Virus genome (UHGV): UHGV-0106476
DNA from: a virus
DNA length: 31,719 bases
Strand: one strand, 5' to 3'
This document shows positions 4,909 through 17,533 of the stretch, one piece after another (within the stretch, counting starts at the first letter, position 1; each line of letters begins with the position of its first letter). The notes under the pieces were generated by a model. The model was not told the DNA's origin and ran no database searches. It saw only the letters and a program-made list of their open reading frames with translations. The position numbers were made by a program, and so were the translations under genes.

Positions 4909-4936
4909 AAAAAATTGCCCTCACACTGGAGGGCAA
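4909..4936 (-). terminator. intrinsic terminator on the pL strand upstream of the 322-aa gene
   Basis: Minus-strand RNA: 8-bp stem (4929-4936 with 4915-4922), 6-nt loop, then a U6 run (4909-4914). A second 9-bp hairpin lies at 4997-5024. Confidence 0.5.
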
Positions 4937-5535: not shown

Positions 5536-5562
5536 CAAAAATAAAGGCCGACTATGCGGCCT
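5536..5562 (-). terminator. putative intrinsic terminator between the 156-aa and 98-aa genes
   Basis: Minus-strand hairpin (stems 5545-5550 and 5557-5562, 6-nt loop) followed by UUUAUUUUUG; overlaps the 156-aa gene stop. Confidence 0.4.
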
Positions 5563-6031: not shown

Positions 6032-6093
6032 ATCTCACCTCAAATAAGTGGTTTGCTGCCAAAACAATGAACCATCCGGAAATTCCAGATAGT

Positions 6094-6318
6094 TCATAAT
6101 TCACTCTTCAATACTTCCAACTTACTAATCGCCGATAGATATCCGCGCTGATAGGGCATCATCACTCCTTCGAGCTTGCCACTTCTTAACTCCTCCCTGA
6201 GCAATTGTATTGCTTGATCAATAACCTCTGCCTTAGCGTCCTTTATGGCTTGCTTGCGGGGCTTTGCTTTCTGCTTTGGCAGATTTCTCAAGCATGATGG
6301 AATGTATGTCTGATTCAT
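6094..6318 (-). CDS. hypothetical small basic protein immediately downstream of N
   Basis: 74 aa from the ATG at 6316-6318 (MNQTYIPSCLRNLPKQKAKPRK...), GAGGTAAG RBS; the ORF track's extra codon is a GTG. Confidence 0.5.
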   Translation of the reverse strand: MNQTYIPSCLRNLPKQKAKPRKQAIKDAKAEVIDQAIQLLREELRSGKLEGVMMPYQRGYLSAISKLEVLKSEL

Positions 6319-7348: not shown

Positions 7349-8065
7349 TCAAACCAGCCTTAGTTTTGTCTCAATTGCAACGCCTATAATCTTGCAGTTT
7401 CCATTGATTGGCACGAGAGGCCATGCAGGGTTAAGTCCCTTGAGGTATTTATTTCCGCCGTCGATTATCAGCTTCTTGAATGTTGCTTCGTTAGAGTCAG
7501 AAAGTTTTGCTATGACCAAGCTGCCGTTGATCGCCTCCCTTCCGGTATCGAAAAGAACGAATGTTCCCTCTGGAATGCTTAACCCAACCGGTGCCGTCAT
7601 TGAATCACCTTCCACTTTAAGCCAAAACGCATTACCTTGAATATGCGCGTCAGACTCAAGCCAAACATCTATGTCTTTAATGGTGTATGGTTCGCATGCT
7701 TCACACCACGAGCCAGCCTGGATACTGCTTAACACCGGATACCTCTTTCCTGCTCTGTATTCCCCTGCATACCTTACGTTGGCATCGCTCTTAAGGCTTT
7801 CTGCCTGTTCTGCAACCTTGGCAGCAATTGACTGGCTAAAATCAGCAATTGAGACTTGCAATAATCGTGCAAAACCAGATGCAACCTCAACGTTTAGCGC
7901 ATTTCTGCCATTAAGATAATGCCCTACCGCTCCTTGGGTGATACCCAGTTCATCAGCGATTGAGTATTGGGTTATTCCCAATTCTTTCTTTTTTGACTCA
8001 TACAAAGCCTTAAGCCGCTTAGCGTCTTCGAGCTGTTCTGTCGTCAGTGATTTTTTATTTTCCAT
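7349..8065 (-). CDS. cI: CI repressor (HTH plus LexA-type S24 autopeptidase domain)
   Basis: 238 aa with an N-terminus resembling lambda CI (LTTEQLEDAKRLKALYESKKKELGITQ), an EGDSM Ser motif and a C-terminal catalytic-Lys region (FKKLIIDGG); divergent from cro. Confidence 0.9.
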   Translation of the reverse strand: MENKKSLTTEQLEDAKRLKALYESKKKELGITQYSIADELGITQGAVGHYLNGRNALNVEVASGFARLLQVSIADFSQSIAAKVAEQAESLKSDANVRYAGEYRAGKRYPVLSSIQAGSWCEACEPYTIKDIDVWLESDAHIQGNAFWLKVEGDSMTAPVGLSIPEGTFVLFDTGREAINGSLVIAKLSDSNEATFKKLIIDGGNKYLKGLNPAWPLVPINGNCKIIGVAIETKLRLV

Positions 8066-8142: not shown

Positions 8143-8171
8143 TTGTTCATGGTTAATAACGGAGAGTGCAT

Positions 8172-8366
8172 ATGATTCGAATGACACTTGCCGATTACGC
8201 CAAAATCCATGGACAGGCTAAAGCAGCCAGTGACTTTGGTGTAATCCAGTGCGCTATCAGCAAGGCCATTCTGGCAGGCCGTAACATCATGGTTACGGTA
8301 AAGCCTGATGGCAGTGTGATTGGAGAGGAAGTTCGTCCTTTCCCAAGCAACAAGAAAAACAAATAG
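8172..8366 (+). CDS. cro: Cro repressor
   Basis: 64 aa from the ATG at 8172 ([64 protein letters not shown]), closely resembling lambda Cro. The ORF track's start is an upstream GTG. Confidence 0.85.
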
Positions 8367-8474: not shown

Positions 8475-8753
8475 ATGCAACTTACAAGTACTCGCAAGAA
8501 AGCGAATGCAATTACAAGCAACATCCTGAATCGAATTGCTGTACGTGGTCAGCGAAAGGTTGCCGACGCGTTAGGGATTAATGAATCGCAAATTTCGCGA
8601 TGGAAAGACAGCTTCATCCCAAAAATGGGAATGCTTCTGGCTGTTCTTGAATGGGGTGTTGAAGACGAGGAGTTGGCGGAACTGGCTAAGAAAGTAGCCA
8701 GAATGCTGACAAAAGAAAAAGCCCCGAAGAACGGCGAATTCTTCGAGGCCTAA
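8475..8753 (+). CDS. cII: CII transcriptional activator
   Basis: 92-aa ORF; NESQISRWKDSFIPKMGMLLAVLEWGV matches the lambda CII core (KSQISRWKRDWIPKFSMLLAVLEWGV). Confidence 0.85.
   Translation: MQLTSTRKKANAITSNILNRIAVRGQRKVADALGINESQISRWKDSFIPKMGMLLAVLEWGVEDEELAELAKKVARMLTKEKAPKNGEFFEA
8508..8521 (-). promoter_or_regulatory. CII-binding site of a pRE-like promoter
   Basis: Minus-strand TTGC-TTGTAA-TTGC (TTGC-N6-TTGC) inside the 5' end of cII, the same arrangement as lambda pRE. Confidence 0.55.
8711..8749 (-). terminator. OOP-like antisense RNA terminator overlapping the 3' end of cII
   Basis: Minus-strand 10-bp stem (one G-U) with 9-nt loop followed by UUUUUCUUUU (8711-8720); convergent with cII, as for lambda oop. 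A candidate -10 (CATAAT, reverse complement of 8785-8790) lies about 60-70 nt upstream. Confidence 0.5.
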
Positions 8754-8787
8754 TGTAGAAAGACTGGATCAATCCACGGGAGTAATT

Positions 8788-8949
8788 ATGACAAAACGTC
8801 GTAAGAAATACCAGGAAAAAGAAGAGATTCGACACCCTGATTCACCTGAGGGATTAGTGGTAGCCGCAGCAAATAACAGGGCGTTCGCAGAGCGCCTTGT
8901 TGGTGTTTACAGACTAGCCAAAGCAGGAGTGAAACATGGGCGTCGTTAA
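8788..8949 (+). CDS. small basic hypothetical protein between cII and the replication genes
   Basis: 53-codon ORF (MTKRRKKYQEKEEIRHPDSPEG...) with GGGAG RBS; below the ORF-track cutoff; overlaps the candidate pO region. Confidence 0.3.
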   Translation: MTKRRKKYQEKEEIRHPDSPEGLVVAAANNRAFAERLVGVYRLAKAGVKHGRR

Positions 8950-9826
8950 GTTAGCTGATTACAGGCATAACCCTGTACAACATCAGGAGGCATCCAGTAT
9001 GGGGTATGTCTCTATACACCGCCAGTTTATGGACAGCAGGCTCTATAAGGACTCTCAGGCAGTACATCTTTGGCTTCACTTAATCCTCAAGGCTAATCAC
9101 GAATCTACTGTCGTCAATACGGATATCGGTCCGATAACTGTTGATCGCGGTCAGATGATAACTGGACGCCCGTCTCTGGTCAGAGAAACATTCATCCCTG
9201 ACAACAAAGTTCGGAGCTTATTACGGACTTTTGAGTCGAAAGGGATGCTTAATATTTGCTCGATGGGGAAGAAATTTAGCCTGTTTACAATCGTTAAATA
9301 TGACGATTTTCAGGCAAAAAATTGTCCAACGGTTGTCCAACAGTTGTCCAACGCAAACACCAGTAATGGTGCGGCTCTCAGCGGAGATTGTCCAACGGTT
9401 GTCCAACGGTTGTCCATAAACAATAATATAAATAATATCTCTAATACTGACGTATTAGAGAGTGCTACAGCAGACAAAAAGTCTGACAAGAAAAAACCTT
9501 CCGTCAGCTGTCAGGATGTTGTCGATGCTTACCACGAAATCCTTCCTGAAGCGCCAAGAATCCGCGCACTGAATGACAAGCGTAAAAACCAGATCCGAAC
9601 GTTCTGGCGCAAAGCCGGAGTGATAACCCGACAGCTTGACGGGCATGGTTTCACGATGCAGGACTGGAGAAATTATTTGAGCTACGTAGGCGAAAATTGC
9701 CGATGGATGTTCGAAGAGCGCCCAAACCATCAGCGCGGAACCGTCTGGCACAAAAAGGGATTTGATTTCCTGCTTAACGATAATACCTACCTGAAAGTTC
9801 GTGAGGGTGAACACGATGACCGATAA
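8936..9826 (+). CDS. replication initiator (O-like, origin-binding)
   Basis: 296-aa ORF with the ori iterons inside it and a DnaB-like helicase gene immediately downstream (P22 gene 18/12 arrangement). The ATG at 8999 (strong AGGAGG RBS) is an alternative start. Confidence 0.65.
   Translation: MGVVKLADYRHNPVQHQEASSMGYVSIHRQFMDSRLYKDSQAVHLWLHLILKANHESTVVNTDIGPITVDRGQMITGRPSLVRETFIPDNKVRSLLRTFESKGMLNICSMGKKFSLFTIVKYDDFQAKNCPTVVQQLSNANTSNGAALSGDCPTVVQRLSINNNINNISNTDVLESATADKKSDKKKPSVSCQDVVDAYHEILPEAPRIRALNDKRKNQIRTFWRKAGVITRQLDGHGFTMQDWRNYLSYVGENCRWMFEERPNHQRGTVWHKKGFDFLLNDNTYLKVREGEHDDR
9322..9450 (+). repeat. replication origin: iteron clusters plus AT-rich tract
   Basis: Six TTGTCCAAC-type repeats at 11-bp spacing in two clusters (9322-9352 and 9388-9418), then an AT-rich segment (9419-9450), all within the O-like reading frame. 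Confidence 0.7.
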
Positions 9827-11252
9827 TTTTTATGCGCCGCCCCATAGCATCGAGGCAGAGCAGGCGGTGATTGGTGGATTGCTTCTGGATGATGACAGCA
9901 GTGAGCGCGTCCAGAAGGTTCTGGCGATGCTGAAGCCTGACTCATTTTACGGCCGACCACACAAAATCCTTTTCGAAGAAATAACCAGAATGCACCGGGA
10001 GCAAAAGCCAGTAGATGGCCTGACGCTTTTCGATGAACTGGAGCGTAAATCGTTAACTGTGTCTGTTGGCGGTTTTGCTTATATCGCTGAGATCGCAAAG
10101 AACACGCCAAGCGCAGCAAACATCGTTGCCTATGCAATGCAGGTTCGTGAAACCGCAATGGAACGCTACGCCATCAACCGCATGACTGAAGCGACGGAAT
10201 TGCTCTATTCCCGCAACGGAATGACTGCAACACAGAAGTACGAAGCTATTCAGTCGATTTTCACGCAACTGACAGACCATGCAAAAACCGGATCGCGTCG
10301 CGGCCTTCGCTCATTTGGTGAGGTCATGGAAGACTGGGTTAGCGACCTTGAGAAGCGATTTGACCCGTCAGGCGAACAACGAGGAATGAGCACAGGGATC
10401 CCATCGCTGGACAGGATGCTGTCACCGAAAGGTCTGGTGAAAGGCTCTCTGTTTGTCATTGGCGCTCGCCCTAAGATGGGGAAAACGACGCTATACAGCC
10501 AGATGGCAATCAACTGCGCAGTGCATGAGAAAAAGCCCGCTCTGATGTTCAGCCTTGAAATGCCAGGTGATCAGATACTGGAAAAACTGGTAGGGCAGAA
10601 GTCAGGTGTTAACCCGAATATTTTTTACCTTCCGGCGACAAATGACGCCGATGACGGCTATCAGGGTGATTACGATGGTGACTTCAACAGGGCGATCGAA
10701 ACAGCCAATCGCTTGAGTGAAATCGACCTGCTTTACATCGACGACACGCCGGGATTATCTCTGGCTCAAATCGTCAGCGAAAGCCGTCGAATCAAACGAG
10801 AAAAAGGATGCGTTGGCATGATTCTTGTCGATTACCTGACGCTAATGACCGCTGAAAAGGCCGATCGTAACGACCTTGCCTACGGCATGATCACCAAAGG
10901 ACTGAAGAACCTTGCTAAAGAGCTTGATTGCGTTGTTGTTCTTCTGACACAGCTTAACCGCGCACTGGAAAGCCGAACCAATAAACGCCCATTACCAAGT
11001 GACTCCCGAGATACAGGGCAGATTGAACAGGATTGCGATTATTGGGTTGGGATCCATCGTGAAGGTGCTTTTGATGACAGTGTTCCACCTGGTGAAACCG
11101 AACTAATCCTTCGTCTCAATCGTCATGGCAATACCGGCACGGTGTATTGCATTCAGGCAAATGGAGCTATTTATGACACAGACCAACAGTCTGCTGAAAT
11201 GCGCCGCCGTGAACGCGAGGAACCGCAGTCCAAGAAGAAAGGAGGATTCTGA
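9816..11252 (+). CDS. DnaB-family replicative helicase
   Basis: 478 aa from the ATG at 9816 (MTDNFYAPPHSIEAEQAVIGGLLLD...), Walker A GARPKMGKT, typical DnaB N-terminus; overlaps the O-like stop. Confidence 0.85.
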   Translation: MTDNFYAPPHSIEAEQAVIGGLLLDDDSSERVQKVLAMLKPDSFYGRPHKILFEEITRMHREQKPVDGLTLFDELERKSLTVSVGGFAYIAEIAKNTPSAANIVAYAMQVRETAMERYAINRMTEATELLYSRNGMTATQKYEAIQSIFTQLTDHAKTGSRRGLRSFGEVMEDWVSDLEKRFDPSGEQRGMSTGIPSLDRMLSPKGLVKGSLFVIGARPKMGKTTLYSQMAINCAVHEKKPALMFSLEMPGDQILEKLVGQKSGVNPNIFYLPATNDADDGYQGDYDGDFNRAIETANRLSEIDLLYIDDTPGLSLAQIVSESRRIKREKGCVGMILVDYLTLMTAEKADRNDLAYGMITKGLKNLAKELDCVVVLLTQLNRALESRTNKRPLPSDSRDTGQIEQDCDYWVGIHREGAFDDSVPPGETELILRLNRHGNTGTVYCIQANGAIYDTDQQSAEMRRREREEPQSKKKGGF

Positions 11253-11350
11253 TGACCATCTACATCACTGAGCTAATAACAGGGGCTATTTACACAGTGG
11301 CCCTTTTTTATTGGATTAAGAACGAGGGGGATCCTGATGGACACCGTTAA
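11252..11350 (+). CDS. very small hydrophobic ORF
   Basis: 32 codons (MTIYITELITGAIYTVALFYWIKNEGDPDGHR), start overlapping the helicase stop (TGATG) with AAGGAGG upstream; could be a chance ORF. Confidence 0.25.
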   Translation: MTIYITELITGAIYTVALFYWIKNEGDPDGHR

Positions 11351-14565: not shown

Positions 14566-15074
14566 GAGAACTAAACCTCACCAAAGAGCAGCACGAGTGG
14601 CTGAATGGCTGGCTTGAACTGTGGGGCGCATGGGTTTATTCAGGTCGTCTGGAAAAGCGCATGAGCAGCGTAATAGCGAAGTTCATGGAGAGCGTAGAGC
14701 CGGGAAGAGTTATGACAAGGCCAATGTGTAATGATGATGATGGAATGTTGATTTCTCAGGTCGTCGATTCCGTCATGTACATTGACAAGAAAGCCTTTGG
14801 CATCCTCCTCAGCTACTACGCTCATGGTTCATCAAAGCGAGCAATTGCATCCTACTATCACGCGACTGCAAAGCCACGCAAGATGTGTGGACGTGGTGGC
14901 GAGGGATGGAGAAAACCTTCACTGGCAACCTGTAGAAACGAAATTGACGACATCCTGAAATCGTCGTTATTTGTTTTGTACCAACCAATGCAAAATGCTT
15001 TCAAAATGCGTAAACGTGTTGAGAAAGTTAAGCATGTTGCTGTTAAAAGCCTTGACATGCAATTAGCCATTTAG
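14556..15074 (+). CDS. Q: Q-type late-gene antiterminator
   Basis: 172-aa ORF between ninI and the late promoter/lysis genes; LELWGAW and [10 protein letters not shown] segments resemble recalled Q proteins of the P22 gp23 / phage 82 type. Call is by synteny plus partial recollection. Confidence 0.6.
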
Positions 15075-15081
15075 CCATAAT
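15052..15081 (+). promoter_or_regulatory. candidate late promoter pR'
   Basis: TTGACA (15052-15057), 18-nt spacer, CATAAT (15076-15081), spanning the Q stop codon. Confidence 0.4.
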
Positions 15082-17506: not shown

Positions 17507-17533
17507 AGCCTCGCATTCGCGGGGCTTTTTATT
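17507..17533 (+). terminator. intrinsic terminator after the lysis cassette
   Basis: 8-bp stem (17507-17514 with 17519-17526, one G-U), ATTC loop, then a T run (17526-17530). A second 9-bp hairpin lies at 17543-17568. Confidence 0.55.

Follow-up and report, generated by a model that had tools for sequence, protein, structure and literature searches.

The window analysed here is the whole 31,719-nt stretch of virus genome UHGV-0106476, which belongs to an E. coli phage or prophage of the P22-like, Lederbergvirus type. The nearest public relatives are phiv205-1, CUS-3, IME10, and mEpX2. The genes and features of the locus are listed in Table 1. An oop-like element at 8711–8813 on the minus strand lies between cII and the replication genes, with the O-like and DnaB-like genes downstream. 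The part of cII under the predicted RNA (8711–8753) amounts to 43 nt, including the stop codon. The CII protein of the window shares 53% identity with lambda CII. A cII gene 100% identical to that of the window was found in a contig labelled "MAG: Bacillota bacterium" (JAEZIN010000021.1, locus L126); this label is probably a binning or contamination artefact in a metagenome-assembled genome.

Table 1. Coordinates of genes and sequence features at the cII–oop locus of the window
Feature	Position	Strand	Evidence or description
cI repressor	7349-8065	minus	Peptidase_S24 and HTH domains
cro	8166-8366		Cro confirmed by Pfam
cII (P22 c1-type), antisense target	8475-8753	plus	Pfam Phage_CII, E = 1.8e-42
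Predicted oop-like antisense RNA	8711..8777	minus	67 nt; covariance model, 96 bits, E = 1e-21
U-tract U5CU4	8711..8720	minus	First two U close the stem
Terminator hairpin, tO homologue	8719..8751	minus	14 bp, loop UCGCC at 8737-8733
Short 5′ stem-loop	8755..8777	minus	GUGGA 8777-8773 with UCUAC 8759-8755; MFE fold
Conserved 33-bp block ACTGGATCAATCCACGGGAGTAATTATGACAAA	8763..8795		oop 5′ end, Shine-Dalgarno GGGAG, start codon, pO -10
Extended -10 of the pO homologue	8785..8793	minus	TGT 8793-8791 and CATAAT 8790-8785
Small ORF of 53 aa, HK97 gp53-like	8788-8949	plus	Annotated in Sf6, HK633, ES18
-35-like hexamer TGGTAT	8808..8813	minus	17 bp from -10; 2/6 consensus positions
O-like replication gene	8936-9826		ORF list
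DnaB-like helicase	9801-11252		ORF list

On the minus strand, positions 8751..8719 read AGGCCUCGAAGAAU-UCGCC-GUUCUUCGGGGCUU and form a hairpin of 14 pairs (6 G-C and 3 G·U) with a 5-nt loop, followed by UUUCUUUUGU. The sequence-only reading had described a minus-strand terminator with a 10-bp stem and a U5CU4 tail at this place. Both were found, the 10-bp stem (CCUCGAAGAA/UUCUUCGGGG, with CUUUUUCUUUU) being the core of the longer hairpin, to which four outer pairs were added. The antisense position of the terminator over the last codons of cII, a gene now confirmed by Pfam, also held: the stem and the U-tract lie within the last 13 cII codons, since the stop codon at 8751–8753 abuts the base of the stem. 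The U-tract is encoded by the cII Lys/Glu codons ACA AAA GAA AAA. The hairpin at 8719..8751 thus has the features of a rho-independent terminator of the tO type, placed on the antisense strand in the C-terminal codons of cII.

The minus-strand RNA from 8777 to 8709 (69 nt) had a predicted folding energy of -27.1 kcal/mol (z = -4.7), and none of 200 shuffled sequences was as stable, while the plus-strand RNA of the same stretch reached -15.1 kcal/mol (z = -2.1). The plus-strand fold is weaker because the three minus-strand G·U pairs turn into C·A mismatches, so that in the window type 14 pairs on the minus strand face 11 on the plus strand. No T-run follows the stem on the plus strand. Among the terminator-like sites on both strands of the 31.7-kb window, 8751..8719 has the longest G+C-rich stem. 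The second 14-pair stem, at 6097..6067 on the minus strand, contains 5 G-C pairs and is followed by a poor T-tail, and the stem of the next best site is 10 pairs long; the hairpin at 8751..8719 is the strongest terminator-like site of the window. Good terminator-like hairpins were also observed in the leftward early region (4915–4936, 5545–5562, and 6067–6097, all minus strand) and just after the helicase gene (11281–11305, plus strand).

The hexamer CATAAT is located about 69 nt upstream of the U-tract on the minus strand, as the sequence-only reading had reported, and its CAT lies opposite the ATG with which the 53-aa ORF begins. The extended -10 of the window is identical to that of lambda, tttgtCATAAT, with TG two bases before the hexamer in both phages. 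In lambda, the O start codon lies within ATTATG, whose complement is CATAAT, and the pO-inactivating mutation affects the A two bp before this start codon (Olszewski et al. 2014, PMC3985674). This base is the last T of CATAAT, and its equivalent in the window is position 8785. The likeness continues into the transcribed region: minus-strand TTTGTCATAATtACTCCcGTgGATtGATCCAGT corresponds to lambda TTTGTCATAATgACTCCtGTtGATaGATCCAGT, which comprises the pO -10 and the first 15 bases of oop, and the string TTTGTCATAAT.ACTCC.GT.GAT.GATCCAGT marks the base-for-base match to the lambda pO -10 and oop +1 to +15. This homology was read by eye, the MAFFT pairwise alignment having misaligned the loci, and was confirmed in a three-way alignment of lambda, P22, and the window.

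The promoter assignment had been called weak in the sequence-only reading. By homology, the -10 assignment is strong, and only the -35 is poor. A generic promoter scan, the check proposed at that time, gave no call at the pO homologue because TGGTAT matches so few consensus positions. The first T and the third G of the -35 are kept at the exact 17-bp spacing in at least eight downstream-gene contexts, where the hexamer reads TTGAGT (lambda), TGGTCA (P22 and BTP1), TGGTAA, TGGAAT, TGGTAC, TTGTAC, or TTGTAA. The hexamer of the window is weaker than those of P22/BTP1 and lambda. In the P22 GenBank record, TGGTCA-17-CATAAT is annotated as a promoter with the remark "homology with phage lambda."

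The low -35 score and the silent consensus scan would fit a real leftward terminator that has no active promoter of its own, stops stray antisense transcription from the replication region, and yields no discrete oop RNA. This explanation is improbable. The -10 is identical to the mutationally defined -10 of lambda pO, and the TGn extension lessens dependence on the -35, whose T1 and G3 occur at 17-bp spacing in every context examined. Furthermore, this downstream ORF stands next to a lambda-type oop in HK633 and HK97-type phages, and discrete transcripts come from the BTP1 and P22 homologues. By comparison with these loci, the pO homologue is presumably active in the exact TGGTAT context as well. 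No LexA box was seen by eye near pO in the locus sequence, and LexA goes without mention in the lambda papers on pO and oop (PMC3985674, PMC3349717).

Both promoter elements overlap a gene, the start codon and the first nine codons of ORF 8788–8949 carrying the pO -10 and -35 on the opposite strand. The -35 region (8808–8815, minus strand) was compared with the same position in loci L002, L004, L043, L129–L133, L215, and L217. Read on the plus strand, it encodes Tyr/Phe-Gln/Lys at codons 8–9 of at least seven otherwise dissimilar downstream ORFs, with conservation at the third positions of codons 8–9 and at the first base of codon 10. The pentamer CCAGG, also a Dcm site, occurs in five downstream gene types. 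These alignments suggest that any gene brought in downstream by recombination has its coding sequence constrained by the promoter, and the -35 (T.G, 17-bp spacing) may be what imposes Tyr/Phe-Gln/Lys on these dissimilar genes.

Other promoter-like sequences were observed in the window. Two copies of TGGACA-18-GACAAT on the minus strand (9416..9387 and 9350..9321, within 9321–9416) are repeats inside the O-like gene; their positions are those of replication-origin iterons in the Sf6 and HK620 annotations, so they are not promoters. Of the sigma-70 consensus matches in the window, the best, TTGACA-18-CATAAT (11/12), lies at 15052–15081 on the plus strand, and a strong plus-strand terminator is located about 2.4 kb downstream, at 17507–17526. 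Together they may represent the late promoter region or another rightward unit.

The predicted RNA is 64–67 nt long, starting at 8777 or 8774 and ending at about 8711. Its 5′ end would be G8777 by homology to lambda +1, or G8774 by the P22 RNA-seq 5′ end; the exact position is uncertain because, in P22, the read begins 3 nt further downstream than the lambda-homologous +1. The 3′ end is predicted within U8714–U8711. In the predicted layout, a short 5′ stem-loop is followed by a single-stranded linker, in which the cII stop codon appears as its complement, and by the terminator hairpin. The whole RNA is complementary to the pR transcript, covering the 43 nt of the cII 3′ end and the intergenic junction. 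The cII stop codon is TAA in the window and TGA in most relatives, which alters the linker between the two hairpins (AUUA versus AUCA). A 49-aa ORF on the minus strand (8686–8835) was rejected as a gene: it starts upstream of the promoter, reads across the terminator, and is simply the antisense of two coding regions.

The conserved 33-bp block is the same as the "bsq5 boundary sequence", a mosaic joint in the Sf6 annotation, and a "33 bp high homology region" at pO/oop of lambdoid phages was described by Hayes et al. 2012 (PMC3349717). Window positions 8763–8795 match the published block ACTGGATCaATCcACAGGAGTaATTATGaCAAA at 32 of 33 positions, the sole mismatch being G for A at 8778; the block also aligns to lambda and P22. 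The block pattern ACTGGATCNATCNACNGGAGTNATTATGAC was present in at least 120 IMG/VR contigs, beside at least four different cII tails, and in HK633 the same 53-aa ORF as in the window is joined to a lambda-type oop. The promoter may not be the sole reason why the block is conserved: the ribosome-binding site and start codon on the plus strand, or use of the block as a recombination joint, could account for part of the conservation. The block also contains a conserved GATC (8767–8770) and the DnaA-box-like sequence TCAATCCAC. In lambda, DnaA-protected sites have been reported downstream of pO (PMC3985674, PMC3349717).

The cII tails upstream of the block fall into several unrelated sequence classes, each of which forms a hairpin. 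These are the lambda class (CGCCCGG..CCGAGCG), a lambda loop variant treated as a separate class, the 933W/HK97-like class (TCCCCGG..CCGAGGA or CCGGGGA), the P22 class (GCCTCAAGACTG..CAGTTTTGAGGC), and a class of the window's own. In every class, the A-run before the stem on the plus strand, that is, the minus-strand U-run, is invariant. Extra variants were collected through loci anchored on the cII protein in Pantoea, Kalamiella, and Enterobacter prophages, and through BLAST in an Erwinia phage. The cII protein scan of genome contigs returned 8 loci, and that of viral contigs 80 near-identical cII genes, which were useful for the diversity of downstream genes and not of hairpins. Fold prediction for 46 distinct RNAs placed a terminator hairpin at the end of all but one (L202), the sequence of which was incomplete in the fold set; its hairpin was intact in the register-corrected comparison.

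A covariance model was built on the P22-type oop family. Run over the whole window, it matched the element at 8711..8777 with 96 bits (E ~1e-21) and nothing else, and lambda-type loci scored only 14–29 bits. Among 16 distinct family members, 85.5% of cells were paired against a shuffled mean of 76.9%, the "not paired" cells being partly an artefact because the 3′ arm of the P22 class was misregistered. Seven pairs changed on both sides, against a shuffled mean of 3.1. Neither observed value was reached in any of 500 shuffles, and the true register was the best among slides from -3 to +3. In the 5′ stem of the same 16 members, 98.8% of cells were paired, and two of the five pairs changed on both sides. 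P22-class hairpins have one extra loop base and one U fewer than the window class, and both MAFFT and the covariance-model alignment placed their 3′ arm in a register shifted by one column; this was corrected by hand. After correction, 10 distinct hairpin variants had 13–14 of 14 positions paired, with two-sided changes at eight positions (2, 5, 6, 8, 11, 12, 13, and 14). The CII tail varied while pairing was kept, for example KAPKNGEFFEA versus KPQDCCNSFEA. The kept pairing and the covariation indicate, therefore, that the structure is under selection as an RNA and on the minus strand. A chance origin of the hairpin is excluded by its z-score and by the covariation.

These comparisons also bear on the idea that the hairpin is a plus-strand feature, either a stabilising or processing structure of the pR mRNA or a by-product of cII coding, and that its resemblance to a minus-strand terminator is coincidental. 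The weaker plus-strand hairpin does form, and P22-type variants have equal numbers of possible pairs on both strands (13 versus 13). However, the pairing of the window type is asymmetric in favour of the minus strand, the plus-strand stem is not followed by a T-run, the A-run preceding it stays unchanged in every class, and pairing outlasts changes of the peptide tail. In addition, P22 minus-strand transcripts end at this very site. A hairpin acting on the plus strand alone, which the sequence-only reading had named as the finding that would speak against it, conflicts with the asymmetry between the strands, the invariance of the U-tract, and the minus-strand 3′ ends in P22, and we consider this explanation very improbable.

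The Rfam search of the whole window at gathering thresholds produced no match, and a local Rfam search at E ≤ 10 gave only chance-level scores (ctRNA_p42d at 19 bits, where the threshold is 50). Since nothing in Rfam matched as oop, these results do not speak against membership in the oop family.

All sequence-testable defining features of a lambdoid pO-oop-tO cassette were found at the locus, except a good -35. The likeness to lambda oop RNA first seen in the sequence extends to position, strand, promoter, and 5′-end sequence. We interpret 8711–8813 (minus strand) as the pO-oop-tO cassette of a P22-like E. coli phage and as a functional oop homologue yielding an RNA of about 65 nt, with a probability of roughly 0.85 for this reading. 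A discrete transcript from the window locus would be expected by analogy with the homologues in which transcripts are known, P22 (63 nt) and OOP-BTP1.

In the proposed mechanism, RNA polymerase would start at the extended -10 TGT-CATAAT, which lies on the start codon of the gene after cII, and transcribe leftward from about G8777. It would stop at the intrinsic terminator in the last cII codons, releasing an RNA of 64–67 nt. This RNA could pair with the pR transcript over the 3′ end of cII and the junction between cII and the replication genes, and the duplex, by analogy with lambda OOP, would be cut by RNase III. The cII mRNA and the CII protein would then fall, with a bias to lytic growth. 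Convergent transcription from pO may, in addition, reduce read-through from pR into the replication genes. In lambda, the lowering of cII expression by OOP through RNase III is attributed to Krinke & Wulff 1987 and 1990, as cited in PMC3349717. That the RNase III/cII mechanism operates in the P22 subtype is somewhat favoured; it is held less likely than the identity of the cassette because the overlap is shorter and the long 5′ stem-loop of lambda is missing. By the same analogy, down-regulation of cII and an effect on lysogeny would be expected in this phage.

It is also conceivable that the convergent promoter itself matters most, so that transcriptional interference and replication control by pO throttle pR transcription into the O and helicase genes and the origin, the RNA being a by-product. 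Inactivation of lambda pO raises pR read-through and impairs phage and plasmid replication (PMC3985674), and the promoter of the window lies directly upstream of the replication module. Interference is nevertheless compatible with an antisense role and does not exclude it. It needs no terminator inside cII and leaves the covariation of the 5′ stem unexplained, while lambda OOP supplied in trans inhibits cII (PMC3349717). As the main role of the locus, interference is rather unlikely, and an antisense RNA directed at cII remains the preferred reading.

A further proposal is that the P22/HK620-type oop is a structurally distinct subclass and that the cassette is an element with three-way overlap that stays linked across mosaic joints. 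We regard this as tentative, at slightly less than even odds. Judging from the aligned tails, the hairpin may have been rebuilt repeatedly by compensatory substitutions in the codons of the CII C-terminal tail; if so, RNA structure and the CII protein tail constrain each other. The proposal includes the constraint of the -35 on the downstream genes described above, and the 33-bp boundary sequence, serving as a recombination joint, would be conserved for being promoter, RNA 5′ end, and ribosome-binding site at once. The comparative data offer a clean case of an RNA hairpin kept by compensatory change inside a protein-coding tail, and of a promoter constraining the first codons of a recombining downstream gene, and neither point alters the understanding of the lysis–lysogeny circuit.

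The element, read here as an oop antisense RNA gene of the P22 type, is already known, down to the identical sequence in HK620 and Sf6. Both phages are 100% identical to the window over the 91 bases from 8705 to 8795, and both are listed among the oop loci found via the 33-bp conserved sequence (Hayes et al. 2012, Figs S1/S2, PMC3349717). The HK633 and HK629 records carry the remark "similar to lambda oop" on the same block. In most GenBank records of P22-like coliphages (HK620, Sf6, mEpX2, IME10), oop is not annotated, and the Sf6 record labels part of the locus only as the bsq5 boundary. The value of the present analysis lies mainly in annotation, as the oop gap in GenBank and Rfam could be closed with a covariance model of this kind.

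Lambda OOP (pO-oop-tO; 77 nt, 38675 to 38599) is likewise antisense to the 3′ end of cII and placed before a replication gene. Lambda and the window share TGT-CATAAT over the ATG of the next gene, and the first ~15 transcribed bases are nearly identical. Both make the terminator from C-terminal cII codons, with the U-tract on aligned Lys codons (lambda ...NKK...). Within 8711–8722, the antisense U-tract corresponds to A-rich Lys/Glu/Asn codons at aligned positions of the window and lambda (L004) CII, the residues beneath it being T-K-E-K in the window and T-N-K-K in lambda. With the U-tract codons at aligned CII positions, the two terminators are therefore positional orthologues, although their stem sequences are unrelated. 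The window RNA is about 10 nt shorter than lambda OOP, and it overlaps cII by 43 nt, compared with 55 nt in lambda. The long 5′ stem-loop of lambda (GAUAGAUCCAG...CUGGAUUUGUUC) is absent, its partner arm not being present in the window RNA, and a 5-bp stem takes its place. The -35 is TGGTAT in the window and TTGAGT in lambda, and the downstream gene is the 53-aa ORF instead of O.

The window RNA lacks the features of the lambda subtype, namely a length of 77–80 nt, the ATCCAG...CUGGAU 5′ stem-loop, and the tO hairpin GCUCGG/CCGGGC. It has those of the P22 subtype: 63–67 nt, the GUGGAUUGAUCCAGUCUUUCUAC 5′ segment, an AUYA linker, a 13–14-bp hairpin, and the UUUUCUUUU tail. Since the lambda-type 5′ stem-loop is not there, the element belongs to the shorter P22 subtype. 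P22C-oop is a 63-nt minus-strand RNA, GAUUGAUCCAGUCUUUCUACAUCAGGCCUCAAAACUGUUCCCGCAGUCUUGAGGCUUUUCUUU, antisense to c1 and reported from RNA-seq in 2026 (PMC13397905), a paper that credits P22 oop to Backhaus & Petri 1984. The P22 locus was found by BLAST of the RNA, as the P22 paper uses the numbering of AF217253 and not that of NC_002371, and the RNA aligns with window positions 8774 to 8712. P22 GenBank records annotate the promoter and terminator of oop. The P22 RNA shares with that of the window the 5′ 25 nt, the linker, the hairpin geometry, the U-tract, and membership in the covariance-model family. Differences lie in the loop and in the inner half of the terminator stem, with five two-sided pair changes and one A·C mismatch in P22, and also in the -35 (TGGTCA) and the downstream gene (orf48).

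A further homologue with a reported transcript is OOP-BTP1 of the Salmonella prophage BTP1, annotated from transcriptomics by Owen et al. 2020 (PMC7067206), the supplements of which do not give OOP coordinates. The BTP1 locus (30555 to 30489) is identical to the predicted RNA of the window at 65 of 67 positions, the two base differences being G3U and U26C. Its promoter has TGGTCA as the -35 and TGG before the -10, where the window has TGGTAT and TGT, and the terminator hairpins of the two loci are identical.
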